Origin: a virus
Taxonomy: Duplodnaviria > Caudoviricetes
DNA: 64,000 nucleotides
Strand: one strand, 5' to 3'
IMG/VR virus record: IMGVR_UViG_3300021387_000161
Span: 81,523-145,522 of that record
The notes under the pieces are model-generated. The model was given only the letters and a program-made list of their open reading frames with translations, ran no database searches and was not told the DNA's origin. The position numbers were made by a program, and so were the translations under genes. Below are positions 10,782-54,264 of this stretch, piece by piece (within the stretch, counting starts at the first letter, position 1; each line of letters opens with the position of its first letter).

Positions 10782-11615
10782 TTATTTATACAATAACTTT
10801 TTAAGATCTATATATGCTCCTGTGCAAGCACTTGTTGGTGTGTTATGTAGTTTATTTTTATCTACTTTTATTCCTCTATTCTCTACTATTTTCTTAGCTT
10901 CATCATATAAACCATTTTTTACAGCTTCATCAAACATGTTTTGGACTAAATGTATATTTGCTTTGGCTTGAGATTCATACAAATATTCATCATCATATTC
11001 TTCTTCGTCTCCAAAAGCACCTTCTAAATAATCTATTACATCATTAGCTAAATCTTCATCTCCATAATTATGTACTATTTCGCTCCATACTTCTCTTAAT
11101 GAAATATCATATGGGTATAAGCTACTATATTCTTTACAAACGTCATCAAAGAGTTCATAATCATAAGACTCATCTAATCCACTTCCATTTCTGTTTCTAC
11201 TATATATAATCCTGCCACCGTTTTGTTCAATAAAGTTTAATAGTTGAGATTTATCCATTGCTTTAACTTGTGATACAAGATGTATAAAGTCATCTGACGA
11301 AATACTCTGGCAATAAACTTCACCATAATCTGTATCATCATTAAATATTACAATACAATTTATAGAATTCAATACTTTATTCTTATTTTCATCATATATC
11401 ATTTTAGAACTTGAAAGTAATTTTATTTCTTTTCCATCACCTAATTTTATCCAATTTTTATCATTAAACTTTAACAATCCATGTCTGTTATCCGCCATTG
11501 GCATTGCACCGTTTATATCTTCCATAAATGATTCATTCAATCTTCTACTCTTCTTTTTTTCTTGCTCTATGCCACTCATAGCATATAATCTATCTGTAAA
11601 TTCATTTAATTTCAT
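10782..11615 (-). CDS. Acidic putative internal head (cargo) polyprotein
   Basis: MKLNE|...RRLNE|SFME|...GLDE|S...YLYE|S sites divide it into about three domains. Confidence 0.5.
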   Translation of the reverse strand: MKLNEFTDRLYAMSGIEQEKKKSRRLNESFMEDINGAMPMADNRHGLLKFNDKNWIKLGDGKEIKLLSSSKMIYDENKNKVLNSINCIVIFNDDTDYGEVYCQSISSDDFIHLVSQVKAMDKSQLLNFIEQNGGRIIYSRNRNGSGLDESYDYELFDDVCKEYSSLYPYDISLREVWSEIVHNYGDEDLANDVIDYLEGAFGDEEEYDDEYLYESQAKANIHLVQNMFDEAVKNGLYDEAKKIVENRGIKVDKNKLHNTPTSACTGAYIDLKKLLYK

Positions 11616-11616
11616 T

Positions 11617-12147
11617 TTATTTCTCCCTAATTTGGAATATATAACTATTTATTTTTATACTTTTAGTATCAACGCCCACGTTGTTAGGGAAAGATATATT
11701 ATTATATCTCATCTTTGCAGATGTAATTATCTCCTTATTGGAAAAATTTACAACATCTAGTGTTACTGTCAATGGAAAATTATCAAATTTATTAACTATA
11801 TTTTTCCCTTCATACTGATTTATAGTACAAGTTATATTATATCTTATAGGTACCACATCATAATTTTTAGTGTATTCTATAAATATATCACCCTGTGATG
11901 ATTCTTTTATATTATTTGGATCTATATTATTGTCTATACAGAACTCTTCGGCTTCATCATAATAAGAAAAGGGTTCGGTAATTATTTGTGATGGATGCCT
12001 ATCAGAAAAATTAGTTTTAGAAGAAAATTTAAACTTATCTTTTAGCTCTACTCCCTTAGGAAGACCATCAAGATTGTCTTTTATATTATATTTAATATTC
12101 TCATTTATATTTTTACTTTCAAGTAATAAATCGCTTAATATACTCAT
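11617..12147 (-). CDS. Putative internal head protein with LxE leader
   Basis: Begins MSILSDLLLE|SKNINE|N. Confidence 0.45.
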   Translation of the reverse strand: MSILSDLLLESKNINENIKYNIKDNLDGLPKGVELKDKFKFSSKTNFSDRHPSQIITEPFSYYDEAEEFCIDNNIDPNNIKESSQGDIFIEYTKNYDVVPIRYNITCTINQYEGKNIVNKFDNFPLTVTLDVVNFSNKEIITSAKMRYNNISFPNNVGVDTKSIKINSYIFQIREK

Positions 12148-13100
12148 TAATCTAAATCCATTTCTACTTGATCTTCAAATTCTTTATCTGGCTTTGTAAA
12201 CCTATATTCGTTATTAGGTTTAAACCTACCTTTTTCTCTCGCTAATTGATTAGCTTTACTAATCCTATCTCCTGTAACTTTAGGTCCTTCTTCTGTATCT
12301 TCTATATATAATCCTGCTTTTGTTACTTTATCATATGTGGTATCAGTAACTTCCCCATACTCTTCTATATCACTATCTACCATATCTTGATATTCATTTA
12401 TTCTATCACCTAAATTAGAATCACCAGTTACATCTGTAATATCTAATTGAACTTCGGCATCAGGATCATATGGTTGCTGATATATTGCAGGATATATATA
12501 TTTTTGATATAATCTTTCATCATGTTCTTTCATATATTCTATATAATTATATATAACAGAACTTACTTTTATTAACCAACTACTATCACTTAATGCTAGA
12601 TTTATATGTTTACAACCTGGACCTTTTGTATCATTAGGATTAGTTATATCAGATGGTCTTAATTCTGGAGCTCCTACTAATATATTATTTTTTGTAGCCC
12701 AATATTTACCTCTATATCTAAAATCAGGACAAGTACAGTTTATATAAACATTATCTGCGTTAAAAGCTCTTACAAGTGCCCTTGAAATTATTTTTCTATC
12801 TAAAGATACTCCACCGTTAAGGAAATTATGTAGTTCATCTAAAAAACCAGAAAAAGATATTCTTACTACGTATATATCTGTCTCACCTTTAACATCTATA
12901 TCAACATCAATAATATCATCTTTAAATAATTTATTCATGTCAATAGAATTAAAGTTTTTTACAGATGCAGCAAGTCTTGAATACAGTCTTCTTTGGTATC
13001 TATTTTTTCCTTTAAACTGATTCCATATAACATAAGGATCACCAGTTTTTGATCTTGATAATAATTGACTTCTTTTATCTTCTAATAGTATATTCTTCAT
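12147..13100 (-). CDS. SWIM zinc-finger protein with LxE leader
   Basis: CTCPDF...GCKH (CxC-xn-CxH SWIM motif); begins MKNILLE|D. Confidence 0.7.
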   Translation of the reverse strand: MKNILLEDKRSQLLSRSKTGDPYVIWNQFKGKNRYQRRLYSRLAASVKNFNSIDMNKLFKDDIIDVDIDVKGETDIYVVRISFSGFLDELHNFLNGGVSLDRKIISRALVRAFNADNVYINCTCPDFRYRGKYWATKNNILVGAPELRPSDITNPNDTKGPGCKHINLALSDSSWLIKVSSVIYNYIEYMKEHDERLYQKYIYPAIYQQPYDPDAEVQLDITDVTGDSNLGDRINEYQDMVDSDIEEYGEVTDTTYDKVTKAGLYIEDTEEGPKVTGDRISKANQLAREKGRFKPNNEYRFTKPDKEFEDQVEMDLD

Positions 13101-13112
13101 TACATTAATAAA

Positions 13113-13139
13113 TAAGGGTGAGTAATTTACTCACCCTTA
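13113..13139 (-). terminator. Intrinsic terminator after the tail tube gene
   Basis: AAGGGTGAGTA / TACTCACCCTT hairpin followed by TTATTTATT on the minus strand. Confidence 0.75.
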
Positions 13140-13151
13140 AACTCTCTTTAA

Positions 13152-13721
13152 TTAGGTTGTATATTCTGGGTAAGCTCTATCATATTCAATAGTAACTGTA
13201 ATTTCTCTGCTACCATCTTGATCTGCTGACATATCTTGTTCAGATATACTTGAAATCCAACATCCTTCTAATTTCCATGTTCTTACAACATGGTCATAGT
13301 CTGGTGGATATTCTAATAAAGTACAATCATACTTATAGTCTTTTTGTAATCCTACATGTTGATCTTTAGGATCGCCTGACAGTGCTTGCCAAGCCATAAG
13401 TATATCTTTTGTTTCAGCGCCTATAAAATCATAACAAACAAGAGATCCAGATGAATAAGAAATAACTCCTGCGTATTTTACAGCTGTATTACCTCTTCTT
13501 ACTTCAATTGCATTTTGTGAGAAATGAGGCACAGAAGTTCCTTTTACAGAAAGTCTTATATAATCACTTGCCTTAGGAAATGTTTTAGTATCACTACCCC
13601 AGGCTGTAATATTATTTAAGGCCGCAGGTATTACAAATTCAAAGTTATTACCTCTCTGAATTTCATAGATCTCTTTGTTGGCAGCAAAATGATGAGCACC
13701 TTGATCTTGTCTAATTGGCAT
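13152..13721 (-). CDS. Tail tube protein (T4 gp19-like)
   Basis: VKYAG...WKLEGCWISSI...ITVTIEYD; directly downstream of the sheath gene. Confidence 0.85.
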   Translation of the reverse strand: MPIRQDQGAHHFAANKEIYEIQRGNNFEFVIPAALNNITAWGSDTKTFPKASDYIRLSVKGTSVPHFSQNAIEVRRGNTAVKYAGVISYSSGSLVCYDFIGAETKDILMAWQALSGDPKDQHVGLQKDYKYDCTLLEYPPDYDHVVRTWKLEGCWISSISEQDMSADQDGSREITVTIEYDRAYPEYTT

Positions 13722-13734
13722 TATTTAATCCTCT

Positions 13735-15774
13735 CTATTCTACTTCTGCGACATCAACTTCATTGTTCTCTATTTGAACAGTTAAATCAAATACTTCAAC
13801 GGAGTTAATAGGTCTAATCTGTATATTGGCTAATATCATATATGCTGGAACAGGTTCACCTGATTCTGGATTTATATTGAATTTAGTTAATTTGTAATCA
13901 CTTAATATACTATTAGAAATCATAGTATCAAGTATTGGTGAAATTAAACTCTTAAATTGAATCCAAAGAATATCTGTATTTTGCTCAAACAGTAATTGTT
14001 GTGAAGCTTCGTATAAAGTCTTTTTAATATCCGAAACAACATTTCTTATATTTAAGAATGAAGTAGCTTTTGTACCATTTCTATTATTTCTTAATGTTCT
14101 ATTACCCCAGATACAATAACCATACTGTCTAATATATGTTATAGGGTTAATTGAAATTAATGAATAATCTGGAACTAAGTCTGATGGTACAGTTTGATAT
14201 GAATCTGCTACATTATTTGTTAAAGCATAATTAGTATGTAATGAACCGAAGTAAGGTATTTTACCTCTAGATACACCAGCTACTGCTAACCATGGAGTTT
14301 GATTATTCTTAACCTGTGTTGCTAACGAAGATAAGTAAGCAAGTGATGCTGGCATAAATACATTAGGATTTTGACCCCTATCACCTGCTATTGAAGAATG
14401 AGTACATTCATACCATGGTGTAAACATAGCACCATATGAGGCAGTAATAGAGGACATACTAGAGAATTGATCTCTTACTTGACTAATAACTGATAAAGTA
14501 TCTGATTCATAAATTGTTCTACCAGGATTATCTGTATGGTCTATTAATGCTACTGAATCATGTCTTTCATAAGCCATATTAATCATAGCTTCAGCTAATC
14601 CTGAGCTAACTTTAGTTACTCCAGTTACACTATCTGTTGATAATCTTCCATATTCAAAAGTAGGATAACCACCAGAAGTGATATATTTAATTGAATAATC
14701 ACCCATACTATCGAATGAATAATCTGGATTATCTGGATTACCCATAAATCTTTTTGATAATCCAGTATACATGCTATCTAATGATTCATCAGCTCCAATA
14801 TACCAAATAGTATCATCACTTGTTACATCTGCCAATGTTCTATACTGTATTGTAGGATTAGTACATTTTACGTATGAATTATTTGAAAAATAATACCAAC
14901 CCTGATCATATGGACTAATGTATGTATCAGTAGTACCACTTGACTCTGTAGTTGTTCCATACATTGCCAATGCTGAATTAAAATCACTAGCTAATTCTAC
15001 AATATCATAATTATTAGCACTGTTCATTTGTTCATAGTATACAGGCATACCTAATGATAATAGATATAAAGCATATCTATATCCAGGATCCATATCACCT
15101 ACAGCAAACATTGGTGATGTACTTTCTATTACTTGATAATAACTTTTTATAGAAGTTCCATCATTAGCAACGCCTATTTGTGTATCACTAGATTTATAAG
15201 GCGATGTAGTATTTCCACCTTCATACCAATTTTGTTCTAACGGACTTATGTTAGATTCATATACTAAGTTACCTGAATCTGGACCATATGTTTCTATATA
15301 TGTACTTCCATCTTCAACCGGCAAAGTAGAATAAGTTACAGTCCAACCGTCTGTATCAGAACCTGTAACTAAGAAATAATTTATACCGTCTTCAGGCTCC
15401 CAATCTACACCTACTTCATCTGAAGAAATATCTACTAATCTGTAGAAATGTGATAATCCATCTTCGTTATTCCTATCAGCAAATTTAGTTAAATTCATTG
15501 GAGTATTATCTAACACTAATGCTCTATAATTAGGAATTGCATAGGTTGGAAATCCATTTGATGTTAATGTAGCTTCTGGATAACCTTGTTCTGACGTAAA
15601 TGTTATAGGGCTATCGCCAAATAAATTTATAAATTGATATTTTGATGTAACTAATGTTGGAGTTCTAAACAAATCTGGATTATTTCCAAATCCTGGGACG
15701 TATGCTACATCATAGGAAGATAGTGTTTCCACATTAAATGTATTATCTTCTTCTCGAATTATAATTCTTTCCAT
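13735..15774 (-). CDS. Contractile tail sheath protein (gp18-like)
   Basis: PWLAVAGVSRG, INPI...IWGNRTL, LNIR, LLFEQN C-terminal sheath motifs. Confidence 0.9.
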   Translation of the reverse strand: MERIIIREEDNTFNVETLSSYDVAYVPGFGNNPDLFRTPTLVTSKYQFINLFGDSPITFTSEQGYPEATLTSNGFPTYAIPNYRALVLDNTPMNLTKFADRNNEDGLSHFYRLVDISSDEVGVDWEPEDGINYFLVTGSDTDGWTVTYSTLPVEDGSTYIETYGPDSGNLVYESNISPLEQNWYEGGNTTSPYKSSDTQIGVANDGTSIKSYYQVIESTSPMFAVGDMDPGYRYALYLLSLGMPVYYEQMNSANNYDIVELASDFNSALAMYGTTTESSGTTDTYISPYDQGWYYFSNNSYVKCTNPTIQYRTLADVTSDDTIWYIGADESLDSMYTGLSKRFMGNPDNPDYSFDSMGDYSIKYITSGGYPTFEYGRLSTDSVTGVTKVSSGLAEAMINMAYERHDSVALIDHTDNPGRTIYESDTLSVISQVRDQFSSMSSITASYGAMFTPWYECTHSSIAGDRGQNPNVFMPASLAYLSSLATQVKNNQTPWLAVAGVSRGKIPYFGSLHTNYALTNNVADSYQTVPSDLVPDYSLISINPITYIRQYGYCIWGNRTLRNNRNGTKATSFLNIRNVVSDIKKTLYEASQQLLFEQNTDILWIQFKSLISPILDTMISNSILSDYKLTKFNINPESGEPVPAYMILANIQIRPINSVEVFDLTVQIENNEVDVAEVE

Positions 15775-15805: not shown

Positions 15806-16513
15806 TTAAGAATTTTGTTGTTTCCAAGATGTACCTCCACAAATTGGACATACAGTAGGAGTTTCAAATGTTTGGTATGCATATCCACAATCTAAACATA
15901 CAAAATTCTTAACCTCGTATGTGTCATCTATCCTTATTTCAATTTCCGCGTTGCGGTGTTGTCTTACATCCCACAAATAAGCATCGTCTATAGAAATTAT
16001 AACAGACATAACTGTTAAATTACCTTCTATAAATCTTTCAGACATATTAGAATTATCATTTATAGTATTACTACCTAATGAAATTCTAGCGGTATGTTTC
16101 ATATCTGCGTCTGGAACGGAAACTGTCATTGCAGGATAATTAACTATGTTAAAAATCAAATTCCTCATCAGTATGTCTGCTTCTTCTGCTCTTCTTGCAT
16201 ATACATCTATTTGATATGTAAGAGATATTGGAATAGCATTTACTATCTTCATGGAATTCGTTTCTTCATCATATGATCTATCAATACCATCATATGATAG
16301 TGGCCTTCTTGTTCTTCCTTCATTTATTATTTCATAACCCATATCTCTACTGATAGATATTAAAGGTAACTTAATTTTAGAATCAGCATTTTCATCAGCT
16401 ATGAGTTCAAATAATCTTCTTGTTTCTGAAGGCCCATAAACTTGAGTTTTAGAACTAGAAGTCCATTTTTTAAATTTTTCTACTAATGCTTTATCATATA
16501 AATATGATGACAT
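15806..16513 (-). CDS. Tail terminator/sheath stabiliser (gp15-like) with C-terminal rubredoxin-like Zn ribbon
   Basis: KLPLISISR...PISLTYQIDVY; CLDCG...CPICG; position between neck and sheath. Confidence 0.65.
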   Translation of the reverse strand: MSSYLYDKALVEKFKKWTSSSKTQVYGPSETRRLFELIADENADSKIKLPLISISRDMGYEIINEGRTRRPLSYDGIDRSYDEETNSMKIVNAIPISLTYQIDVYARRAEEADILMRNLIFNIVNYPAMTVSVPDADMKHTARISLGSNTINDNSNMSERFIEGNLTVMSVIISIDDAYLWDVRQHRNAEIEIRIDDTYEVKNFVCLDCGYAYQTFETPTVCPICGGTSWKQQNS

Positions 16514-16516
16514 TTA

Positions 16517-17086
16517 TTAATCTCCATCTAAAGTTAATTGACTTTCTAATTCTTCAATCTCTGTAGTCATTGGTCTAATATTTTCTGTTCCTAATATATT
16601 AAGTTTTTCTGAATCAATTAATTCATCAATGTCTTTACCATTTGCTAATGATTCAAAATCATCAAAATATTCTGGAACTATTTCACAAGTTATAGATGAT
16701 GGATAAACTATTTCATTAACCATCTTAACTACTCTAAATAATCTTCCTTTACCATCATCTAGTCCACTTGGAACTATGAATAATGCTCCTTGTTGAAGTC
16801 CTGGTAAATCATAATCAACATGTATAAATGAAGAATTTTCATTTAACTCTGATACCCAACCTATTTTTCTTAATGTTTGCTGTGTTGGGTGTTCATCAAA
16901 TATACACCCAACCATAATTGGATCTTCATAATTAGATTCTAATTCTCTATAAGTTGTATATGTTTTACCAGTTTTGGGGGCTCTGTATAAAACCCTTATC
17001 CCTAAGAGCTTACACATTTCTCTAAAATATTGTCTATTTATCTTTATATCTGGAGTTAATAACTGACCATATTTTTGGTTTTCCAT
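16517..17086 (-). CDS. Neck/head-closure protein (gp14-like)
   Basis: EMCKLLGIRVLY...; position upstream of the gp15-like gene. Confidence 0.55.
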   Translation of the reverse strand: MENQKYGQLLTPDIKINRQYFREMCKLLGIRVLYRAPKTGKTYTTYRELESNYEDPIMVGCIFDEHPTQQTLRKIGWVSELNENSSFIHVDYDLPGLQQGALFIVPSGLDDGKGRLFRVVKMVNEIVYPSSITCEIVPEYFDDFESLANGKDIDELIDSEKLNILGTENIRPMTTEIEELESQLTLDGD

Positions 17087-17107: not shown

Positions 17108-17701
17108 TTATTCACTTATAAATAACCATACTATTGGTTTGTTATTATCATCAAAACCAATAGGTTTAGGATATACCCAAAAGTTATTAGTAAGTAATTC
17201 TTTAGGAATATTTTCTTTATTAAGATATTTGTCGTCTATACTAGAAATATCACATAATGAGAATATATACTCATCCCATAAATCAAGAATATTTACAGGC
17301 TTTATATCATCATTATAATCACCCATTGGATGTTTAATATAGTTTTGATACTGAAGAAGTGTTGGATCTATTATTTTTGTATTTTTACGAAAACCCTCAC
17401 TAAAAGCTTTTTCTGAATTATTTATATGTAATACAGTATGATCACTACTAAATATGTTTACATAACCATCTGTAACATCGAATGCTCCAATATAAACATG
17501 ATTTATAATTTCTAAGCCTAATTTATTTACTATTTCAGGCTCATTATTCATTATATATTCACATACTTCTTCACATATAGGACGTTGAAAATAGTCACTA
17601 GAAAATTCATCTGCAAGAGAAAATTCTAAATATTCCTTTATATTTTTATAATTGTTATCTTCTAGAATAAAAGCCTCATGAATCGCGTTATTTATATCCA
17701 T
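17108..17701 (-). CDS. Putative internal head protein with IxE leader
   Basis: Begins MDINNAIHE|AFILE|D. Confidence 0.45.
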   Translation of the reverse strand: MDINNAIHEAFILEDNNYKNIKEYLEFSLADEFSSDYFQRPICEEVCEYIMNNEPEIVNKLGLEIINHVYIGAFDVTDGYVNIFSSDHTVLHINNSEKAFSEGFRKNTKIIDPTLLQYQNYIKHPMGDYNDDIKPVNILDLWDEYIFSLCDISSIDDKYLNKENIPKELLTNNFWVYPKPIGFDDNNKPIVWLFISE

Positions 17702-17714: not shown

Positions 17715-18257
17715 TTAAAGGTTGAAATGGTTTAACATATCATCGTATAACTGATCATGGTCGCTGATCCAATTAATTAAATCTGATAATTGATAATGTG
17801 CTAACTCTTCATCACAATACTTATCATTAACATCAATATGGAAGAAATTACATATATCCTCAAATGCTTGGTTATGATCACTAAGCCAATCAATTAGTTC
17901 ACGTTTATTAATATGATAAATAGAACGTGGTTGTCTTGCCTCATCAATCTTTGTTGACTCGTCCAATTCAGGAAAATCATCTTTATAATGTTGACTATAG
18001 ACATCCGTTATATCTTCTATGTTGCTACCTAGTAATTCAACACCCTCTAAGCCATGTTTTAATTCCCACTCAAACCCAGACATTATATCGTCTGGTTGTG
18101 AATTAGGTTCCTCGGAATCTGTATCATACATAATATCAAATGATATTTGTGCTACCCTCTTTGCTCCTTCAGTAAGTTTTACAGATTCTTTTCCTGTATT
18201 ACTAGAATCTTCTTCCAATCTTAACGATTCCTGTAATATTTCTGTAATACTTTTCAT
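17715..18257 (-). CDS. Putative two-module internal head protein
   Basis: MKSITE|ILQE|SLRLEE|...KLTE|G ... LDE|STKIDE|A; internal repeat LIDWLSDHNQ / LINWISDHDQ. Confidence 0.5.
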   Translation of the reverse strand: MKSITEILQESLRLEEDSSNTGKESVKLTEGAKRVAQISFDIMYDTDSEEPNSQPDDIMSGFEWELKHGLEGVELLGSNIEDITDVYSQHYKDDFPELDESTKIDEARQPRSIYHINKRELIDWLSDHNQAFEDICNFFHIDVNDKYCDEELAHYQLSDLINWISDHDQLYDDMLNHFNL

Positions 18258-18261: not shown

Positions 18262-20091
18262 TTATTTCCTTTTTACTGTACCGTAAACTCTTACAGATTC
18301 ATTAAGATCATTCTTGCCCTTGTAATTATAATTTAATGATTCACAAACAAGTGATTTATCGTTTACAGAACAATTAAGTTTAAAAGTTTTTTTGCCCTTA
18401 CTTATTTGCTTATTATAACCTTCAAGTTTTAATTTGCCATTTTCAGAAGTTTTAGGAGAGAAAACAAATTGAGTATCTTTTTCATTACCTGAATCAAATC
18501 CAATTTTACCTTCTATGATAAACTCTTTACTTTCATTTAAAGAAATATTAGAAGTTTTAAATGAAGTTACATTTTCGTAACATCTTTTAAGATAAGATTC
18601 ACCTAATTCATCAAATGATTCCTCATCAAATTCCTCAAAATCTTCATCTGATTCAGGTTCTTCTAAATCAAAATCTTCGTCTGAAAATTCTTCTTCAGGA
18701 ATTTCTTCTTCATCTTCTTCGTCATTTAATTCAACGGCATCTTCTACATCAAGCTCTGTATCAGGCTCGATAGGAGCTATCATTTCTTCACCTTCAAAAG
18801 GTTCTTCTACTGATTCATCTTCTTTAGGAGAAGTTTCAACAACTACACCACCATCTTCTTTAGTGGTCATTGTGATATTTTCATCGTCTGTATTTATTGA
18901 AACATCTTCAATACCTTCTTCAAGCTCTTTCTTATCTTCACAGCCTTCTGAGAAAGTATCTTGGATCTTATCTCCAATCTTACCACCTACAAAACTACCA
19001 ACAGCACCACCAACAGGACCACCTATTGCAGTTCCTACTGCCTTTCCAGCAAGTTTACCGCCAATAGTTCCTTCAACACCTTCTTCAACTTTTTCAGCTG
19101 GAGTAATTAATGAAACCATTTCTTTCTGTTCATCTGCAGGAGCTCTTAAGAAAATCTCATCAACAGGTTCTGTTTCATCACCATACTTTGACAAAATAGC
19201 ATACATCTTATCAAAACCAGGATTATTAGCATTATTTGCATCATCATGGTACTTTAGAAATGTATCTACAAGACCTTCTTCCATAATTTCTGGGTCACCA
19301 CATTCTTCTAAAGATTCATCTAATTTATAAGAATATTCAACTTTCTTACCTTTTCTTAGTTTTTTATCTTCTCTTTTTAATTCGGCTATAGTGGCTTTAG
19401 CTTCTCTTTCTGTTTTTACCCTTGCTATTTCACCATCTACATCTGATTCTACTACCCATGGAGTACCTTGCTTCTTGGCTTCATTTAACTCTGTGTACTT
19501 TGGCCCACGAATCTCATCATTGCCTTCTAAATCATCAACAGCAGCAATTGGTCCATCAGCACCATTAATTTCTTCATCCCCACGAAGTTCTTTTACTTCA
19601 TCAGCTTTAAGACCTTCTTCTAATTCTTCGTCATCTTCAGGTTCTTCGGCTTCTATTTCAATGTCAACTTCTTCTTCCTCAGGAATTTCTCCAGTTTCAA
19701 CATCTTCAAGATCAACATCTTCTTCTTCCTGATAAGGTTTTACTTCACCTATAATAGTATAACCTTCATTTGACATACAATAAGGACATTCTATTTCTGT
19801 GCAACATAATCCATCTTCATCTTCTGTAATATCTTCTTTATTAAAGAATACATTACTATGACATACATTACAATCTAATATTACTTTGCCTATATAGGAC
19901 TGCTTTAAATCTTCTTTAGCTTCAGCTTCTAAATCATATACATCAGAAATTAATTCATCATCCTCTGCAGCATTAATAGTATCTAAAAAAGATTCTGTAT
20001 TTTCAGGATTAATAGCATCTAATGAAAGTTCTTCCACATCTTCAGTTAAATAAACTTGTTTGAATGCCTCTTGAATAAAACTATTATTCAT
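18262..20091 (-). CDS. Very acidic prohead core/cargo polyprotein with Zn ribbon and glycine-zipper segment
   Basis: CNVC...CPYC; many LxE/IxE sites; GGKLAGKAVGTAIGGPVGGAVGSFVGG. Confidence 0.5.
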   Translation of the reverse strand: MNNSFIQEAFKQVYLTEDVEELSLDAINPENTESFLDTINAAEDDELISDVYDLEAEAKEDLKQSYIGKVILDCNVCHSNVFFNKEDITEDEDGLCCTEIECPYCMSNEGYTIIGEVKPYQEEEDVDLEDVETGEIPEEEEVDIEIEAEEPEDDEELEEGLKADEVKELRGDEEINGADGPIAAVDDLEGNDEIRGPKYTELNEAKKQGTPWVVESDVDGEIARVKTEREAKATIAELKREDKKLRKGKKVEYSYKLDESLEECGDPEIMEEGLVDTFLKYHDDANNANNPGFDKMYAILSKYGDETEPVDEIFLRAPADEQKEMVSLITPAEKVEEGVEGTIGGKLAGKAVGTAIGGPVGGAVGSFVGGKIGDKIQDTFSEGCEDKKELEEGIEDVSINTDDENITMTTKEDGGVVVETSPKEDESVEEPFEGEEMIAPIEPDTELDVEDAVELNDEEDEEEIPEEEFSDEDFDLEEPESDEDFEEFDEESFDELGESYLKRCYENVTSFKTSNISLNESKEFIIEGKIGFDSGNEKDTQFVFSPKTSENGKLKLEGYNKQISKGKKTFKLNCSVNDKSLVCESLNYNYKGKNDLNESVRVYGTVKRK

Positions 20092-21426: not shown

Positions 21427-22182
21427 CTATTCACCAAAATTATACATTAAATCTTCAGCTAATGCTTCTACTAATTTTTGTGCATACATATCGTAAGAAG
21501 TAGTGCCTCCATCTTCTTTACACCAATCTAAATTATATTCTGGTATTTCTGAAGCAACCACTTGTGCGATATTAGTAATAAACTCATTATCTAATTTATC
21601 TCTTAAAAAATTAACTACTTTGTTATAAATATCATCTTCAATATCTTCAGTTAATTCTTTAGATTCATTTTTGATACGCTCGTCATGATACTTTTTAGCA
21701 TCATCAAATACACCACCAGGTTTATAAACATAAATAGAAGTTTGAGGTTTATAGTAGGATCTATTTTTGCCAAACGAGTTCTTCCATTCATTACATGCCG
21801 CTCTTGCTTCTTCCTTTGAATCAAATAAGGTACCATTTAAATCATTACCACCGACGAATCCCCCTCGTGTAGTAACAATATATTTTTTCCCTGATTCATC
21901 CTCGTTTAAAACTTCATTTAAATCTTCTGAATGACCTTCATCCTCACCATTATCTATAGAATAGAAATATCCATCTTTTCTTGCCTGATTAATATCTTCT
22001 TTTGAACCCATGAATCTATACAAGCATTCATCGCCTTGTCTACCCATTTTTTGACATTCAAGATTATATTCAGCAGCAAACTCAAATGGATCTTCTTCAG
22101 TTTGACCCCACCATTCATCTACATATGATTCATTAAGTTTATATTTTCTTTCTAAACTTTCTACTAAGTTTCTCATTCTCAT
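21427..22182 (-). CDS. Putative three-module internal head polyprotein
   Basis: Leader MRMRNLVE|SLERKYKLNE|S; internal DLNE|VLNE|D and ELTE|D. Confidence 0.5.
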   Translation of the reverse strand: MRMRNLVESLERKYKLNESYVDEWWGQTEEDPFEFAAEYNLECQKMGRQGDECLYRFMGSKEDINQARKDGYFYSIDNGEDEGHSEDLNEVLNEDESGKKYIVTTRGGFVGGNDLNGTLFDSKEEARAACNEWKNSFGKNRSYYKPQTSIYVYKPGGVFDDAKKYHDERIKNESKELTEDIEDDIYNKVVNFLRDKLDNEFITNIAQVVASEIPEYNLDWCKEDGGTTSYDMYAQKLVEALAEDLMYNFGE

Positions 22183-22185: not shown

Positions 22186-23289
22186 TTATATCCAATCTAT
22201 TGTTGAATTAAATATATTACTTGTTTCATTTTCTACTTTATCACGATAATTATCAAGACGGTTTAACTCATATTGGGCAATATATTGTAAATCACTAGTT
22301 TTTCTATCATCTGTTCTATTAGGATCATTAACAATCCTACCTACAGATCTTACTATATCTGTATATACACTCACATAATTACGTAACAGAGAAGCAATAT
22401 CATTAACTCTTCCGTAGTCATTATAAGAGCTTATATCGTGATCACCTGAATCATCACTAGGTAATATATTAATATTTGATGTGTAATTACCTAATTCTTG
22501 ATATGCATCTTTTATATAAATCTCATGTTCTTTTAAGAGTTGAGGAAGTTTATTAACTTTTAATTTATTTAATTCATCTGCATATCTTTCGATAGAAGGA
22601 ATTTGTTCATAGCCTGATTTATCAACGCCTGAACGCCAGTTTTTTCTTCTAAATAAATCTCTATTATCTCTATCAAAATATTTACCAGATCTATTAGAAC
22701 TTTTATCAACATTTGCTCTACTGCGTTGCTTGTCCATAGAAAAATTATTCGGATCATTTCCGTCAATATAGGCAAAAGATTTACATTGTGGTAATAATTT
22801 ATCTATGTCATAAGCACCAAATGTTTTTCTACCACCAAGTTTTTCATCATCATTAAAACCTGGAGCGTATACTTTCCCATTATCAAATAATAATATAGGA
22901 ATATTAGGAGATTGCATCCTAGGATCATTAGATGATTTTGGAACAGGTCCTTCTATAACTTTTACAGTATCTAAACTTATACCCCTATCTCTGAATTTAG
23001 AAAATAAAGATGGATCTGGATCATATGGATCTAAATTTCTGTATTCCGGCTTGTCACCAAACTCAGGATTTTTCTTGTCATAATCACCCCTTCTTAACTT
23101 CTGTCTAGGCTCATGTGCATTGCCACCAAGATCTCTTTGGACAAGATTACCCGTGTTAGAATATTTTGTGGTTAACAATCTTTTTTCTAGCCAATCTGGC
23201 ATATCATCACTTATCTTTTCTGTTAATGATCTACTTTCATGTAGTTTATATTTATTTTCAAGACTTTCAGTTAAATCTTTTATTCTCAT
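22186..23289 (-). CDS. Putative internal head protein
   Basis: Leader MRIKDLTE|SLENKYKLHE|SRSLTE|K, nearly the same as the neighbour's leader. Confidence 0.5.
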   Translation of the reverse strand: MRIKDLTESLENKYKLHESRSLTEKISDDMPDWLEKRLLTTKYSNTGNLVQRDLGGNAHEPRQKLRRGDYDKKNPEFGDKPEYRNLDPYDPDPSLFSKFRDRGISLDTVKVIEGPVPKSSNDPRMQSPNIPILLFDNGKVYAPGFNDDEKLGGRKTFGAYDIDKLLPQCKSFAYIDGNDPNNFSMDKQRSRANVDKSSNRSGKYFDRDNRDLFRRKNWRSGVDKSGYEQIPSIERYADELNKLKVNKLPQLLKEHEIYIKDAYQELGNYTSNINILPSDDSGDHDISSYNDYGRVNDIASLLRNYVSVYTDIVRSVGRIVNDPNRTDDRKTSDLQYIAQYELNRLDNYRDKVENETSNIFNSTIDWI

Positions 23290-27838: not shown

Positions 27839-27848
27839 TAATTTAGCA
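27839..27848 (-). promoter_or_regulatory. Putative phage late promoter TGCTAAATTA
   Basis: Exact copy, just downstream of a terminator and upstream of the MoxR-neck-sheath operon. Confidence 0.65.
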
Positions 27849-41866: not shown

Positions 41867-41876
41867 TAATTTAGCA
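41867..41876 (-). promoter_or_regulatory. Putative phage late promoter TGCTAAATTA
   Basis: Exact copy at the head of the bS21-protease-capsid operon. Confidence 0.65.
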
Positions 41877-42416: not shown

Positions 42417-44303
42417 CTACATTTCAGTAAAATCTCCTGCACCTAAATCAGATGGGGTTGGAAGTTCATCTCCACCAGATTCTTCTGAACCAAAATCATC
42501 TCCTAGATCTCCAAAATCATCACCACCGTCATCAAAATCAAAATCTCCATCAAGATCTGATCCACCAAAATCTCCACCAAGATCATCACCGAACATATCA
42601 TCATCGAAAGAATCATCACCGCCTGTGTCTTGTTCTTCCGCATCTGATTCTAACCCGTCAATAGTATCTTGAATGAGCTGTATAACTTCTTGATTAGATA
42701 TTACTTTTGATAGTAATGATTTTAACATTTTAAGCTTAATAATTGGATCCTCTATATCTCCAACCATTCTCATAATATCATCAGTTATTTGTATTTCAGC
42801 TGATAAACTATCTCTCTTATCTAATTCTTCTTGAGTAACTGGTTCTTGCATCTGTAAAGTAAACTTATTTACATAAGAATCAAGTCCTCTATCTATTAAT
42901 AAAATATTAATGCAGTCTGTTAACATTTGTTTTATAGTAGATTGTATTCTTTTTACAGTTTTTGCATATCTAGATGATACTATTGATAATGAAGTACCAC
43001 CATTAAATCCAGTTGCATCATCTGTATCGCCTAAATATTGTTTAGGAATTTTTAAACTACCATAAAATTTATTCTTAAAGTAATCAATATCTGCAATATC
43101 TCTTACATTAACATCACCACCAATTTGCTGTGTATTAATAGCACCAATACCATTTCTAGTAGGAACATAAATATTATTTTCCATAGCACCTGGATTAGTG
43201 TATTCAGACATCTTATCGTTGTCACTAATAGAAGTTTTCTGTTCTACTAATGATTTAATTCTTTGTAAATACGGCTGAACTCTTTCTTTTGGCATGTCCG
43301 CTACTTCAACTTCTATCACTCTTAAAATAGATGACTTAGTTAATCTATTTAAAAGTAATGCGTTTTCTAAAAGCATCATCTGTCGCCATATTTTATAGGA
43401 ACTATATAGTAATGATTGACCTCTATTTACAGAAAATATATTAACATCATCTGTTTCTAAATCACCATCATTAAATATTTGTACTTGTTCTGGTATTCTA
43501 GGAGTATCATCTAACAACGCAGCATGTACATAACTTACAGCATTATAAATTTCTATATCTTTCTTTCTTAATTTATATAGATAATAAGAAGATATTAATG
43601 GATTATCCTGCTGCATCATTGTAGGAAGTTCATTTGTTTTTATATAGGCATAACTTTTTCCAAACTTAGTTAACTCAAACATCTCTCCAGGATTTGGCAC
43701 CATTTCAACAAAATTGACTAGTCTATCATCTGAAGAATATCCCTTTAATACAACATTTTCCTTCAGTTGTTCTGGTTCTGGTTGATCCCCCAACTTTGTA
43801 AATGCTTCATTTAATTTACTCTTCTGATCTTTTTCTAAAAGACTATCTTCAAAATCTGATTGTCTGAAGAGCTTTAAATATAAATCTCCATATTTACATA
43901 AAGAATATACCCATCTATAAATATTCTTTTCTACATTCAAACTTTTTAATAAAAAAGTTATATAACTAGAAACATTAGCATCACTTGATTCTACCCAGAC
44001 CGTTTGTCCTTGTTCATTTGTTTCTGTAGAATCTTCTGCATATATTTCTAGTATTGCAGCAACTGTAGAATCTTGTGCCATTGTATCAAGTACTTGATAC
44101 AAGGACTCTCTACTATGTGACAGTTGAGAAAAACTATTTATTGATGTTATATCAATACTAGTAGAAGTTGCTGCTTCTATAATATCATTAAAAAATTGAT
44201 TATTAGTATCTAACCCTGTCGGTGTTTCTGGCACAGGCTGCGCATTTATTTTGTTACCTATTTTAGTATTATCTTTATTAAAGATAGTATCATTATCTGG
44301 CAT
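42417..44303 (-). CDS. Portal protein (T4 gp20-like)
   Basis: LCKYGDLYL, GQSLL...WRQMMLLENALLLNRL, DIDYFKNKFYGSLKIPKQYL; acidic C-terminal tail. Confidence 0.9.
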   Translation of the reverse strand: MPDNDTIFNKDNTKIGNKINAQPVPETPTGLDTNNQFFNDIIEAATSTSIDITSINSFSQLSHSRESLYQVLDTMAQDSTVAAILEIYAEDSTETNEQGQTVWVESSDANVSSYITFLLKSLNVEKNIYRWVYSLCKYGDLYLKLFRQSDFEDSLLEKDQKSKLNEAFTKLGDQPEPEQLKENVVLKGYSSDDRLVNFVEMVPNPGEMFELTKFGKSYAYIKTNELPTMMQQDNPLISSYYLYKLRKKDIEIYNAVSYVHAALLDDTPRIPEQVQIFNDGDLETDDVNIFSVNRGQSLLYSSYKIWRQMMLLENALLLNRLTKSSILRVIEVEVADMPKERVQPYLQRIKSLVEQKTSISDNDKMSEYTNPGAMENNIYVPTRNGIGAINTQQIGGDVNVRDIADIDYFKNKFYGSLKIPKQYLGDTDDATGFNGGTSLSIVSSRYAKTVKRIQSTIKQMLTDCINILLIDRGLDSYVNKFTLQMQEPVTQEELDKRDSLSAEIQITDDIMRMVGDIEDPIIKLKMLKSLLSKVISNQEVIQLIQDTIDGLESDAEEQDTGGDDSFDDDMFGDDLGGDFGGSDLDGDFDFDDGGDDFGDLGDDFGSEESGGDELPTPSDLGAGDFTEM

Positions 44304-44314: not shown

Positions 44315-46342
44315 TTAAATTACTAAACAATCACCAAACAAAGCATAATCAGTAGTAGAAGCCCCTAAACCAAAATCAGTATACATAGTATCTTTATTTA
44401 AACTTTGTCCAAATGCATTAGATACTCGTTTAAGTTCTTCCTCAAAATCTACTGTTATTTGCTGTTTATTATCTGCTATTTCTGATGAACTAGATACATT
44501 TATGATTGTATCAATAGTTTCACCAAATTCAAAATTAAACTCTTCTCCATGTTGGGATGCATTCCATATAGCACCACATAATGCGTCTGCTGAGTCTTTT
44601 GAATTTATCCCAGAAGGAGTATGATCTATTTTTCCATTAGAATTATTTCTTTCTAACCCTAGTAACTCTTCTGTTAATAAAGTATTTTCAAACAATTCTA
44701 ATCGTTCTTCATATATTGTTGATTTTAAATATTGATAAGGTAAGCATATATTATCTTTAACCCTATCTACAGATATTGTTTCAGCTTCATACCCTTTTCC
44801 AATTAATTGCTGTTTCATATCTGCACTTTGGTATGTATCAAATGATATGCCTTTTATATTAAATCCATTTTCTTTGAGCCAATAAATAAACTGTCTATTC
44901 TTTTCAAAACTTATTTGATAGCCTTTAGGTGCTTTTATAGATACAACAAAAGCCGTTCTATAATATAATTCTTTTGAAGGTGGTTGACCTTCTACGGGAG
45001 GTTTTTTACCTCTTATCCAAACACCTGCTAATCCTGTTTTGTCCCCTGATATAGACATATCTAAATGTATATATAATGGATATTGAAGTAATGTTTTATC
45101 AATACTTTCTAAATCAAAGAAATCATAATATTGATTTTTATCCTCTGGATTATTCCCTATTTCTAATATATCTGAAGAAAATGGATTTTTAAATTCTTTG
45201 TGTTTTATTGCTGCTATTCTTGGTCCAGATAAGTATCTACTGCTACTAGTAGTAGATATTCCAGCTATATCAGTTAATGCAATATCTATATCATCAATAA
45301 AGTTTTCATAATATCCCATTGGTACATCAATAACTTTAAATCCTCTATCACGATATATTTGTACATCATTTTCAGTAGCAGTTAATGGTATAACCTCTGA
45401 AGATAAAAATTTATTCCCTATAGCAACTTTAAATTTGGAACTGCTGTTTTTATCCTCTCTAATTACCCATTGTGGTTCATCTATTACTAATGTAGTTTTA
45501 CTTTCATTCTGTTTCTTACTTTCAATGAAAGTCTCCATATAAGATTGTTCTGTTCTTTTAGATGAAGCTAATATTAATAATGTAGGATTTTTATCACCCT
45601 TCATAAATCTGGACTGCATACGAGCAGAAGCAGTATTTACTAAAGCTTTCGCTTTTTCTTTCTGCTTTTCTACATCTTGATTTGGTTGAAATGAAATTTC
45701 ATCGAAGAATGCACTAAATACAGCACGACCAATTATATGTCTACTTAATGAACCAGCTATTAACTCTATATTTTTACTAGGACTCCATTCAACATTAATA
45801 TCTCCTCTAACAGTACCTTTTGATAAAAACCAATCAGAGGATTGTAATAGTTGTTGAAGTTTATCCCAAGCTACACCTTTACTTGCATCTAATGTAATAT
45901 TCATTACTGCAAAAGTTATTTTATCTATTGGCTGTAATCCATAATATACATACGGATCTTTTAAGCATAACATTCTGTATAGTTCATATAACATACATAA
46001 TACTGCCATAAAAGATTTACCAATACCAATAGAACCAGTTAAAGCAAGAGTATTATAACTAGCTGGTTTTAAAGGATCTGGAAAAATTTGTTTTAACGTA
46101 TTTACCCAAAATGGAAATACAGTAAATTTTCCTTCATCGTTTATTAACCCATTTCCAAGATATTTCTTATCTTTTAAAAAAGTTTCAATATCTACTGGTA
46201 TTTCTTCATAATCTTCTAATATTAACTTATTATATTCTTCCGATTGACCAGTAGTAGATAATTGTGTTATTATCTTTAAAACTTCTTCTTTTTCTTCTCT
46301 GCTTAAACTATTTAATTCTTTAAGGTTATCTAAATTTGTCAT
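44315..46342 (-). CDS. terL: Terminase large subunit
   Basis: GSIGIGKS Walker A, FFDE Walker B, HLDMSISGD and KDSADA nuclease motifs; adjacent to portal. Confidence 0.9.
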   Translation of the reverse strand: MTNLDNLKELNSLSREEKEEVLKIITQLSTTGQSEEYNKLILEDYEEIPVDIETFLKDKKYLGNGLINDEGKFTVFPFWVNTLKQIFPDPLKPASYNTLALTGSIGIGKSFMAVLCMLYELYRMLCLKDPYVYYGLQPIDKITFAVMNITLDASKGVAWDKLQQLLQSSDWFLSKGTVRGDINVEWSPSKNIELIAGSLSRHIIGRAVFSAFFDEISFQPNQDVEKQKEKAKALVNTASARMQSRFMKGDKNPTLLILASSKRTEQSYMETFIESKKQNESKTTLVIDEPQWVIREDKNSSSKFKVAIGNKFLSSEVIPLTATENDVQIYRDRGFKVIDVPMGYYENFIDDIDIALTDIAGISTTSSSRYLSGPRIAAIKHKEFKNPFSSDILEIGNNPEDKNQYYDFFDLESIDKTLLQYPLYIHLDMSISGDKTGLAGVWIRGKKPPVEGQPPSKELYYRTAFVVSIKAPKGYQISFEKNRQFIYWLKENGFNIKGISFDTYQSADMKQQLIGKGYEAETISVDRVKDNICLPYQYLKSTIYEERLELFENTLLTEELLGLERNNSNGKIDHTPSGINSKDSADALCGAIWNASQHGEEFNFEFGETIDTIINVSSSSEIADNKQQITVDFEEELKRVSNAFGQSLNKDTMYTDFGLGASTTDYALFGDCLVI

Positions 46343-51195: not shown

Positions 51196-51217
51196 ATAAA
51201 TCCTTTATAAGACTGTA

Positions 51218-52504: not shown

Positions 52505-52854
52505 TCTCCAGATCCTCCAGACATTTCGCCAGCAGCTTCACCACCAACGTCCATATTTTTATTAAATGTATCTATTCCTTTACCTTGGTCTGGAAGTATA
52601 GGAGATAATCCAGTCATAGGTAATTCGGCTTGTTTCTTTTTCTTTTTATACTCTTCGGATAATTCATTTTTATATTGCTTTTTAAAATATTTTATATCTG
52701 CATCTCTATCTTTAGAATTACCAGAATAAGCATAATCTACTTCATTATCTTCTAAATCTTTAACTTGTGTAATATAATTTTTAGAATATTTATCATACCA
52801 AGAATCTATATATAATTCATTGTTAATTTCAATTCTCTTCTCTATTAATATCAT
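52501..52854 (-). CDS. Hypothetical protein, possible head cargo
   Basis: Begins MILIE|K; in the late operon. Confidence 0.5.
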   Translation of the reverse strand: MILIEKRIEINNELYIDSWYDKYSKNYITQVKDLEDNEVDYAYSGNSKDRDADIKYFKKQYKNELSEEYKKKKKQAELPMTGLSPILPDQGKGIDTFNKNMDVGGEAAGEMSGGSGE

Positions 52855-53747
52855 TAGTTATACTCTTTCAATACTTCATCTATATATTTTCCAACATCTT
52901 TATATTTTGTATGAGCTATTTTAGCCTTATTCATAGATGTGTTACTTTCTATATCAGATTCTTTATTAAATAAACTCTTTTCAACAGAACATAAATATAA
53001 ATGTTTCTTAAGATCTATATGACTTAATGCTTTTTCATTCTTTAATACAACTTGATAACCTAAATGAGTTGCTGATATTGCATATAAACATTGAAGATCA
53101 GTTATTTCTCCATTAATAAATGAATCTATTATTTCAAATAAATTATTATCGGCTATAGGAGCATATACATAATCACAATTATCAATTTGCTCCTTTATTT
53201 CTTTTAATCTTGGAGTATCTAAATAATCATCAAGTTTATTTCTACATAAAGCGACAGCAAGCATCCAATCTACATCTACATTAAATCTTGCTTCTATTAA
53301 ATCTGATTTATCAAATGTAAAAATATATAATGATGAATTAATATCATTAGCTACCCACATACCTGCTTGTGAAATATCTTCTCCTAAATAGAATCCATCA
53401 CCAAAATCATTACTACTACCAGGAGCTTTTTTAAGTATTATATCACCAGTAATAGGGATATGAGCGCCATGACTTTTTATTGATATATTTCCTTTATTAT
53501 ATTCATCTTCTGCTTCTAGCCATGAAATTTCATTTAAGTATAAATTATGATTATAAGCAAAATTATATATATTCTCGAGTTGAATTTTATCTGGTATTAA
53601 TCTACCAGCTTTCATATCTGTAAATTCATCAGGAGTTAAATCTATCTGCCTATATAATTTCTCATAATCTTCTTCTGTCTCTATAAAAAGATCTTCTATA
53701 ATTTGTAGATCTTTTGTTATTTCTGTATAACTATTATCTAATATCAA
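52854..53747 (-). CDS. DUF3990-family protein (ADP-ribosyltransferase-like fold) with degenerate N-terminal HTH
   Basis: SHG...NDFGDGFYLG...QA..W, YAPIAD, LGYQ. Confidence 0.7.
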   Translation of the reverse strand: MILDNSYTEITKDLQIIEDLFIETEEDYEKLYRQIDLTPDEFTDMKAGRLIPDKIQLENIYNFAYNHNLYLNEISWLEAEDEYNKGNISIKSHGAHIPITGDIILKKAPGSSNDFGDGFYLGEDISQAGMWVANDINSSLYIFTFDKSDLIEARFNVDVDWMLAVALCRNKLDDYLDTPRLKEIKEQIDNCDYVYAPIADNNLFEIIDSFINGEITDLQCLYAISATHLGYQVVLKNEKALSHIDLKKHLYLCSVEKSLFNKESDIESNTSMNKAKIAHTKYKDVGKYIDEVLKEYN

Positions 53748-53772
53748 TATAAATCCTAAACTTAACTATATA

Positions 53773-53878
53773 TATTATTAATATGTATTATTAATATGTA
53801 ATATTATCTTTAACAATTTTGTTAATAGGGTATTAACATTTTTGTTAATAGGGTATTAACAATTTTGTTAATACGTAA
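53773..53878. repeat. Three 23-bp palindromic tandem repeats plus two AT-rich 13-mers (origin- or operator-like)
   Basis: TTAACA(A/T)TTTTGTTAATA(GG/C)GTA at 53810, 53833 and 53856; TATTATTAATATG at 53773 and 53786. Confidence 0.85.
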
Positions 53879-53886
53879 GAAAAAAA

Positions 53887-54264
53887 TTAAATAAAGTCAG
53901 ATTGTCTAACCCCAACGTCTTCATTTTCTTTAGCAGTTATTATCTGTTCTCTTGCTTCTTCCTCATAATCATTCTGAACACAGTCTTGTATATAATCATT
54001 TAGATCAGCAATATCAGGAATATCATCATGCTCATCAAATTCATCTATTAGTAATTCATAAGCAAAATCTAAATCAGCATTATTCTTAAACTCCTCAGGT
54101 GCTATTTGTTTAGCAAAATTAATAACATCTTCAGCAGATAAATATGTATCTATATAATGCCTAATATCATCATCAGAAACTTCTACTTCTTCTGTATATG
54201 TCTCAAAATCATTTTCTCCAGTCTGAAATTCAGTTTCAACATTCATGTATTTTTCTATTAGCAT
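53887..54264 (-). CDS. Acidic hypothetical protein, possible head cargo
   Basis: Begins MLIE|K; first gene after the late motif. Confidence 0.55.
   Translation of the reverse strand: MLIEKYMNVETEFQTGENDFETYTEEVEVSDDDIRHYIDTYLSAEDVINFAKQIAPEEFKNNADLDFAYELLIDEFDEHDDIPDIADLNDYIQDCVQNDYEEEAREQIITAKENEDVGVRQSDFI

Follow-up and report, generated by a model that had tools for sequence, protein, structure and literature searches.

The IMG/VR record IMGVR_UViG_3300021387_000161 is a virus genome in the form of a single 145,522-bp contig. A 64,000-nucleotide stretch of it (bases 81523–145522; hereafter the window) encodes a series of late proteins that begin with short leaders ending in L-x-E or I-x-E. 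These leaders raise the question of whether the phage directs a set of proteins into its prohead and cuts them there, as phage T4 does with its internal proteins (IPs). An earlier note on the window had proposed such a system, with about 15 leader-bearing genes and a much larger cargo than that of T4. We found the leaders concentrated in a 20-gene late operon, and they are probably prohead-targeting, protease-cleaved propeptides of the T4 type. Genes are named here by their window coordinates (w18262, for example), L002–L022 are contigs of uncultured relatives, and a slash in a motif marks a predicted cut.

Leader motifs in the late operon

The analysis covered the 160 minus-strand genes of at least 60 aa in the whole genome, with starts picked on ribosome-binding-site support, and expected motif counts were obtained from shuffles of the residues within each protein. 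The loose motif [LIFV]xE within the first 30 residues proved uninformative, since it was observed 75 times genome-wide against 69 expected. The tight leader, defined as [LI]xE[SA] with the Glu at or before residue 12, behaved differently. It occurred in 7 of the 20 genes of the late block running from w27791 down to w10782, where 0.29 were expected (Poisson P 3e-8), and in the other 140 genes it was found 3 times against about 1.8. The block, with 20 of the 160 genes, holds 7 of the 10 tight leaders in the genome (hypergeometric P 1.6e-5, or 9e-5 if the two paralogous leaders of w21427 and w22186 are counted once). The enrichment corrected for composition that the earlier note had put forward as a check was thus seen for the tight leader in the late operon and was absent for the loose motif.

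The seven tight-leader genes are w11617, w17108, w17715, w18262, w21427, w22186, and w26164, with the Glu at residues 8–10. Looser leaders are present in w12147, w10782, and w27276. The ten genes are as follows.

27276–27791, minus strand: first gene of the late operon, with a degenerate leader (FE4/S, SLKNKYNIE18, ILNE28/D)
26164–27267, minus strand: MoxR-type AAA+ ATPase, leader MKINKALNE9/A (Pfam AAA_5 2.3e-11, above cutoff)
22186–23289, minus strand: 367-aa protein, double leader MRIKDLTE8/SLENKYKLHE18/S
21427–22182, minus strand: 251-aa protein, leader MRMRNLVE8/SLERKYKLNE18/S (19 aa, as in w22186), body unrelated
18262–20091, minus strand: modular 609-aa protein with a net charge of -114, leader FIQE8/A..LTE17/D
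17715–18257, minus strand: 180-aa acidic orphan in a hypervariable slot, leader MKSITEILQE10/SLRLE15/E
17108–17701, minus strand: 197-aa acidic orphan in the same hypervariable slot as w17715, leader MDINNAIHE9/AFILE14/D
12147–13100, minus strand: 317-aa protein, gene between those for tube and hub, SWIM-like CxC...CxH motif, leader MKNILLE7/D
11617–12147, minus strand: 176-aa protein, leader MSILSDLLLE10/S (tight-motif match)
10782–11615, minus strand: 277-aa acidic protein with MKLNE5/F...RRLNE28/S

All the N-termini quoted in the earlier note were present at gene starts on the minus strand, and its observation that tail and early proteins go without leaders was borne out: no tight leader was found in the sheath, the tube, the gp13-like neck protein, w15806, w16517, the hub, or the other tail and early genes. 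Its count of about 15 was too high. In the 46–54 kb block the tight leader was absent (0 against 0.12 expected) and the loose motif showed no excess (3 against 1.5), and the genes counted there (LKE/N at 51195, and LIE at 52854 and 54264) were dropped from the set as not above chance. Seven firm and three to four probable leader genes are left. Charge and isoelectric point were also dropped as discriminators, because most proteins of this phage are acidic; acidity, which had been named as a hallmark, does not set the candidates apart.

Two genes outside the window deserve mention. The match at genome positions 13176–14687 encodes a Ro60/TROVE-like protein that aligns to phrog_850 from residue 1, and we treated it as an expected chance match. 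At 15974–16897 (L018:3075-3998, minus strand), a 307-aa protein starts with MIYDYIVE/ANLLE/SEELLE/D and has a copy of the ten-base element TGCTAAATTA 172 nt upstream. It matches phrog_5268 and, weakly, Zeta_toxin/P-loop kinase. This protein may belong to the leader set as a dispersed member, like the T4 ip and alt genes.

The same gene caller and regular expression were applied to T4 as a positive control and returned six matches among 258 open reading frames (ORFs): ipII, ipIII, gp22, gp24, gp2, and arn.4. These include four textbook gp21 substrates (ipII, ipIII, gp22, and gp24) as well as the head-internal DNA-end protector protein, gp2. T4 gp2 (NC_000866, 76061–76885) starts with MAIFQIINE/S, which fits an expression of the capsid-targeting sequence (CTS) type.

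All-against-all BLASTP comparison showed the leader-bearing proteins to be mutually unrelated, save for the leader common to w21427 and w22186, where the similarity is confined to residues 1–19 (68% identity). Within families the motif is strongly conserved. In that of w22186, all 20 homologs (down to 33% identity) keep E8 and S9, nearly all keep L6, L10, E11, Y14, L16, and E18, and the second LxE/S unit occurs once, twice, or three times in tandem. In the AAA+ family of w26164, 119 of 120 cluster representatives (down to about 40% identity) carry [LIVFM]xE with the Glu at or before residue 14, against 34.5 expected, and P3 is Leu in 110 of these 119. The Glu lies anywhere from residue 5 to 12 in this family, so what is constrained is the motif itself rather than its place in a structure. 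The SWIM-like family of w12147 gave a similar result (112 of 120 against 20.8 expected, by the same rule), with leaders of varying length. Four orthologs of w18262, down to 49% identity, keep its leader unchanged, and the w10782 ortholog in L016 keeps both motifs despite sequence change (MKLQE/F, RILTE/A) at about 25% overall identity. No ortholog of w11617 was found in L016.

The operon itself recurs in two distant contigs, L020 and L021, which were reached through the ATPase. Leaders are present in 7 of 13 operon genes against 3 of 21 upstream genes in L020, and in 6 of 13 against 2 of 30 in L021. The genes at the position of w27276 have clear leaders in both (MNIRDALYE/S and MGFLHDAIME/S). 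Leaders also appear in orthologs of window genes that have none, namely a von Willebrand factor A (vWA) analog (MRLNE/A) and a low-complexity protein (MKKNVLLE/A; 144.9-kb relative). In AlphaFold2 (AF2) models, residues 1–25 of w22186 and 1–36 of w18262 have a predicted local distance difference test (pLDDT) score below 50 and lie outside the folded parts. The leader-bearing genes diverge much faster than their structural neighbors (42–64%, or absent, in relatives, vs. 58–87%), which fits conflict-driven evolution but does not prove it.

The likeness to the T4 CTS that the earlier note had drawn held up with respect to the IPIII geometry, the unrelated bodies, and the low-confidence N-terminal tails. 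T4 gp21 cuts after L/I-X-E, and the CTS of IPIII comprises residues 1–10, of which 8 and 10 are determinants of its processing (PMC9026906). The T-even internal proteins are diverse and have only a CTS in common (PMC3012670). The leaders described here likewise span 8–10 residues with a hydrophobic P3 and Glu at P1 (MKTYQEFIAE/A in IPII and IPIII; MKSITEILQE/S here). As in the T4 IPs, the leader is the only common feature of otherwise unrelated, fast-evolving proteins, and one regular expression recovers both sets. In T4 itself, Asp at CTS position 10 prevents processing yet leaves targeting intact.

Head module and proposed processing

Judged by its genes, the phage is a myovirus with a T4-type head module. 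Its G+C content is about 30%, and nearly all genes lie on the minus strand. A head-region nucleotide search of 50,697 phage records gave no DNA-level match to cultured phages. At the protein level, the nearest cultured relatives are Bacillus phage HSE3, Listeria phage LIS04, Streptococcus phage GXN1, and Bacillus phage SP-15, and the major capsid protein (MCP) is less than 30% identical to that of any cultured phage. Uncultured relatives were found, including a complete 144.9-kb contig with an 84% identical MCP. The record names of more distant relatives (STEW19, SHIW14, XIEF21) suggest a ruminant-gut source for the lineage. The head module contains the following genes.

44315–46342: large terminase
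42417–44303, minus strand: T4-type portal protein (Pfam Portal_T4, 1e-45)
41191–41553, minus strand: acidic protein of 120 aa, MSRIEE6/S..VTE13, a tight-motif match between the portal and protease genes
38397–41183, minus strand: prohead protease-scaffold fusion, 928 aa (Pfam Peptidase_S77, 5e-8; phrog_207, 8e-31)
37050–38354, minus strand: Gp23-family MCP with predicted propeptide sites LAE17/A and FLNE50/A (Pfam Gp23, 5e-29)

Portal_T4, Peptidase_S77, and Gp23 all score above their Pfam cutoffs, and the T4-type setting on which the reading of the earlier note depends, a gp21-family (Peptidase_S77) protease together with a Gp23-family MCP, is encoded. The Peptidase_S77 (PF03420) domain of w38397-41183 scores 33 bits against a cutoff of 27, and its match is the head maturation protease phrog_207; T4 gp21 scores 372 bits with the same model. 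All 6 homologs compared, down to 33% identity, keep His75 and Ser131 (GISSRG) of the protease. The fusion consists of the S77 protease (about aa 1–175), a variable middle built of cassettes, and a C-terminal coiled coil, with residues 711–856 being coiled-coil-like. The C-terminal 270 residues are both coiled-coil-like and conserved, so they likely form the scaffold.

The MCP scores 102 bits with the Gp23 model. It belongs by sequence to the Gp23 family and has an [LI]-x-E-type site upstream of the conserved core, at which cleavage is predicted. The FLNE50/A site named in the earlier note is present, and the motif [FY][LM]NE/AF is kept in homologs down to 39% identity. It sits 20 residues ahead of the conserved PNLIAFD block, while the T4 mature N-terminus lies 30 residues ahead of it. 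In the alignment with T4 gp23/gp23*, that N-terminus falls near MCP residue 41, about 10 residues from the E50 site. The MCP gene of the window is uninterrupted. In four relatives it is split into two ORFs (L007:195-2653, L008:2290-4719, L009:8688-11038, and L010:8541-10987) by an insertion of about 1.1–1.3 kb near residues 75–118, which resembles an intron or a mobile element.

T4 gp22, gp67, and gp68 are scaffold components that are fragmented by gp21 and then expelled. The acidic protein w41191 is encoded where T4 has its genes 67/68, in the interval from portal to protease (T4 order 20-67-68-21-22-23), and no counterpart was found in relatives L002, L009, and L010. Like the T4 core proteins, the candidates are acidic and have several L/I-x-E sites, gp22 itself starting with MLKEQLIAE/A. 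They differ from gp22, gp67, and gp68 in having no sequence similarity to them. Moreover, protease and scaffold are fused here (928 aa) with variable cassettes, whereas gp21 and gp22 are separate in T4. The interval between the portal and protease genes also contains an 85-aa ribosomal protein S21-like gene (41563–41820, minus strand; phrog_21469, 2e-6), with TGCTAAATTA directly before it. In Bacteroidetes phages, bS21 genes stand beside terminase, portal, protease, and MCP genes on the opposite strand (PMC9723584); the S21-like gene here is on the same strand as the head genes.

Small early-looking genes (w28039-36774) are inserted between the head module and the 20-gene late block, which, besides the leader-bearing genes, encodes a leucine-rich repeat (LRR) protein, the gp13-like neck protein, the sheath, and the tube. 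Nine genomic copies of TGCTAAATTA were found, all on the coding strand and mostly 48–190 nt upstream of operon-initial genes; on this sequence pattern, it is a candidate late promoter element. The copies in the window are listed below.

27839–27848, minus strand: TGCTAAATTA upstream of the late operon, candidate late promoter element
10753–10762, minus strand: TGCTAAATTA immediately ahead of the hub gene, marking where the leader-rich operon ends downstream
36939–36948, 41867–41876, and 54303–54312, minus strand: further copies of TGCTAAATTA

The copies at w27848 and w10762 bracket the 20-gene block exactly, so the block is probably one late transcription unit.

By analogy with T4, a processing pathway may be outlined. 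About 7–10 late-operon proteins would be made with an 8–10-residue tag composed of Met, basic or polar residues, and [L/I]-x-E, in many cases with another such unit 5–10 residues farther on. The tag would attach the protein, in the manner of T4 IPIII, to the scaffold core of the prohead under assembly, a core that the C-terminal coiled coil of the fusion protein would form. The S77 protease, once activated inside the prohead, would cut after the Glu residues and free the mature proteins. The same protease would remove the MCP propeptide of about 50 residues at FLNE50/A and fragment the scaffold. The mature proteins may then be kept and ejected with the DNA, or they may act in assembly and be expelled. 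The set is mixed in kind: besides a MoxR-type ATPase, it has a modular protein of extreme acidity and a number of fast-evolving orphans, which could be effectors ejected into the host.

Internal sites and possible functions of the proteins

Internal motif sites exceed shuffled expectation 1.3–1.5-fold genome-wide, and no single protein survives multiple-test correction. The best individual case, w51218 (5 sites against 0.66), was rejected as not significant after correction for this background and for 160 tests; its excess is partly due to an internal DEESFNKL duplication. The earlier suggestion that several genes encode polyproteins found qualitative support in w18262 and the protease-scaffold fusion and, given the marginal enrichment, not in other proteins.

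The build of w18262 is a leader, a Zn-ribbon module, optional cassettes, and a C-terminal beta-barrel. The AF2 model shows ordered islands at about 60–119 (the Zn ribbon), 209–260, 395–424, and 484–609, with disorder between them. Sites 8, 204, and 259 fall at order/disorder boundaries and are conserved, while sites 498, 520, and 598 are inside the folded C-terminal barrel; the structural check proposed in the earlier note thus gave a mixed picture for this protein. LNE204/A and LDE259/S bracket the 205–259 module exactly, and both motifs persist in L020, which has no such module. A linker motif of w18262 is triplicated in the 144.9-kb relative. The protease-scaffold fusion ranges from 559 to 1151 aa in relatives, its middle is a cassette mosaic, and the indel junctions adjoin the [LIVM]xE motifs VEE/A, VDE/SLTE/A, and PLTE/E. 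We regard w18262 as the best candidate for multi-site processing. Such processing of w18262 and the fusion is plausible, with a chance close to even or slightly short of it, and for the remaining proteins it is unsupported. The window's copy of w18262 alone has a glycine-zipper-like segment at residues of about 365–395 (GGKLAGKAVGTAIGGPVGGAVGSFVGGKIG), which accounts for the weak PHROG matches of this protein to tape-measure and tail-lysin families. A VIA-align search with residues 481–609 returned generic small beta-barrels only (Z at most 6.9).

The AAA+ ATPase, one of the substrate candidates, is assigned to AAA_5, the bpMoxR and AAA_3 Pfam models scoring below their cutoffs. It lies in a module (w23850-w27267) with zincin-like, low-complexity, and vWA-like genes, in which the zincin-like peptidase call for w25451 is weak (DUF6782, E 0.045). 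The MoxR–metallopeptidase–vWA systems of T4-related jumbo phages have been linked to virion assembly, and processing of structural proteins has been proposed for them (Iyer et al. 2021, PMC7824862). The arrangement here resembles the MoxR pair of these phages, in which an AAA_5/MoxR ATPase is followed by zincin-like and vWA-like genes in a virion-gene region. It is unlike that pair in that the partner is split into three genes, and the leader of the ATPase has not been described before. The ATPase clade is metagenome-only, with the best cultured matches about 30% identical over the AAA core. A tblastn search of cultured phages with w26164 gave no match at E<=1e-10 and only rV5-type MoxR cores (about 30% identity) at 1e-3. 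By analogy, the ATPase probably acts in head assembly, and its near-universal leader (119/120) suggests an AAA+ chaperone acting inside the prohead. In L022 (1086-20976), a third distant contig, the leader-bearing ATPase stands amid more than 12 paralogous BspA-type LRR_5 genes, which have a different repeated N-terminal signature in common, F[IV]E..I.LID.

Less can be said about the orphans. No Pfam or PHROGs match was obtained for w10782, w11617, w17108, w17715, w21427, or w22186. The protein atlas gave no usable match for w17715 and unnamed clusters only for w17108, and a Foldseek search of the PDB with the w22186 model (mean pLDDT 62) returned nothing at E<=0.001. The SWIM-like zinc-finger motif of w12147 lies at residues of about 122–165, after a basic N-terminal stretch (KGKNRYQRRLYSR). 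At least 735 metagenome proteins belong to this family, which has no Pfam domain. The slot of w17108 and w17715 is occupied by an 81-aa ORF in L016, by a 191-aa leader-bearing ORF in L020, and by ArdA in L021. This anti-restriction gene (L021:17652-18350, PF07275) lies inside the neck operon and has no [LI]xE leader. We rejected it as direct evidence of a packaged anti-restriction protein and take it as positional context only. Ejection of the leader-bearing proteins and a role of theirs against host defense are conjectural.

A further observation concerns the start of the window. Positions 1–4136, together with the gene upstream of the window, belong to three tandem paralogs of 816–916 aa (genome 77943–85658) with about 40% identity across the C-terminal 500–690 residues; they are likely receptor-binding or fiber proteins.

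Competing explanations and relation to known systems

Several alternatives to T4-type propeptides were weighed. The simplest is that an AT-rich proteome, rich in Glu, Leu, and Ile, yields such motifs by chance. Indeed, roughly every second 30-residue N-terminus is expected to contain loose [LIFV]xE, genome-wide motif counts exceed those of shuffles 1.3–1.5-fold, and the Ro60-like match outside the window probably arose in this way. For the late operon, this explanation is effectively refuted by P values of about 1e-5 to 1e-8, by the replication in independent contigs, and by the family-wide conservation of the motif, and we give it almost no credence as a general account; for the examples at 46–54 kb it is the best one. 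The motif could also belong to a conserved structural or interaction helix that is never cut and serves, for instance, in oligomerization or in docking to the portal or neck. The short AF2 helix at residues 4–14 of w18262 and the conservation of post-motif residues in several families speak for such a helix. However, the position of the motif drifts from residue 5 to 12 while L-x-E is kept, the unit is tandemly duplicated, the motif fits the specificity of the protease, and T4 N-termini of this kind are mostly real gp21 substrates, all of which makes a purely structural role very improbable. Only slightly better is the case for a general virion-assembly tag read by the operon's own MoxR ATPase, zincin-like peptidase, and vWA module instead of S77. 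The module lies in the same operon, some leader genes stand among tail genes, and the processing of structural proteins proposed for phage MoxR systems (PMC7824862) would suit this role. Against it, the motif has the known gp21 specificity, and the MCP has it at the expected propeptide position. In addition, the ATPase itself and, in relatives, its partners are tagged, HSE3 has leader-like sites in gp066 and the MCP yet no such module in the 49 kb examined, and the peptidase assignment of w25451 is weak. We consider this reading improbable.

The most far-reaching alternative is that of the earlier note, in which a greatly expanded set of ejected cargo includes the 46–54 kb genes, and several polyproteins are cut into small anti-defense or host-takeover effectors. 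The hypervariable slot with ArdA in L021, the fast divergence of the leader-bearing genes, the bracketing of cassettes by motif sites in w18262 and the protease-scaffold fusion, and the diversity of T-even internal proteins around a common CTS (PMC3012670) are in line with it. However, leaders are not in excess among the genes at 46–54 kb, the genome-wide surplus of internal sites is marginal, half of the tight sites of w18262 lie inside a folded domain, the ArdA of L021 is leaderless, and no candidate has a recognizable anti-defense domain. One candidate substrate is an assembly-type MoxR ATPase. Nor is the set larger than those already known, since 7–10 candidates roughly equal the processed set of T4 and fall below the 19 processed head proteins reported for phiKZ-type phages (PMC9026906). 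The expanded-cargo proposal therefore seems doubtful in this form.

Some observations also weigh against T4-type propeptides as such. The tube and hub genes flank w10782, w11617, and w12147, the last of which also matches a 'tail protein' PHROG weakly, so a head location is not obvious for the three. The residues after the motif are conserved in the w12147 and AAA+ families as well, and part of the 'leader' could thus belong to the mature fold. Asp and Asn, which are common at P1' here, are not documented as T4-like. HSE3 has the same protease and a single obvious leader-bearing gene, with leader-like sites in gp066 and the MCP and no gene between tube and hub (the position of w12147); the protease alone does not predict the set. 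Finally, the phage is known from metagenomes only.

The comparison with giant phages also favors a T4-type over a phiKZ-type system. In phiKZ, 201phi2-1, and SPN3US, many head proteins are cut after the Glu of a three-residue motif by a diverged gp21 homolog, the propeptides have multiple sites, and the prohead protease has a propeptide of its own (PMC10052503, PMC9026906). In those phages P3 is Ser, Ala, or Gly (A-X-E in SPN3US), most propeptides have 111–254 residues, and genomes exceed 200 kb, in contrast to Leu or Ile at P3, leaders of 8–20 residues, and a 145-kb genome here. The leaders have neither the S/A/G-x-E motif nor the propeptides of more than 100 aa that characterize the phiKZ-type inner body. 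The closest parallels are the T4 internal proteins IPI, IPII, and IPIII (and Alt), with which the system has the S77 protease, the Gp23 MCP, the portal family, and the L/I-x-E motif in common. There are also differences from T4. The IP genes of T4 lie away from the neck and tail genes, whereas the leader genes here are in the neck/sheath operon; many leaders have a second motif unit; and among the predicted substrates are an AAA+ ATPase and a modular 609-aa protein of extreme acidity. The mechanism is thus an already known one, that of the T4 CTS/gp21 system, in a new and uncultured lineage. What is new is the lineage itself, the location of the leader genes in the neck/sheath operon, the frequent doubling of the unit, the fusion of protease and scaffold with its cassettes, and the tagged AAA+ family.

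A broader reading would have an uncultured clade of T4-like phages of 130–270 kb, apparently from the ruminant gut, load an ATP-driven MoxR chaperone (in some, with vWA and linker partners) and hypervariable acidic proteins into the capsid by means of a portable 8–10-residue [L/I]-x-E tag, with some of the acidic proteins delivered alongside the DNA as anti-restriction or takeover factors. We regard this extension as unlikely. If the leaders do work as in T4, they would be a second, independent case, in a lineage distant from T4, of a minimal peptide tag able to direct arbitrary proteins into phage heads. Such a tag would be useful for understanding the evolution of capsid cargo and for engineering protein delivery. 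The combination of an S77 protease and an N-terminal [LI]xE[SA] also offers a sequence-only rule for probable head-internal proteins of uncultured T4-like phages, which in T4 gives four known gp21 substrates among its six matches.

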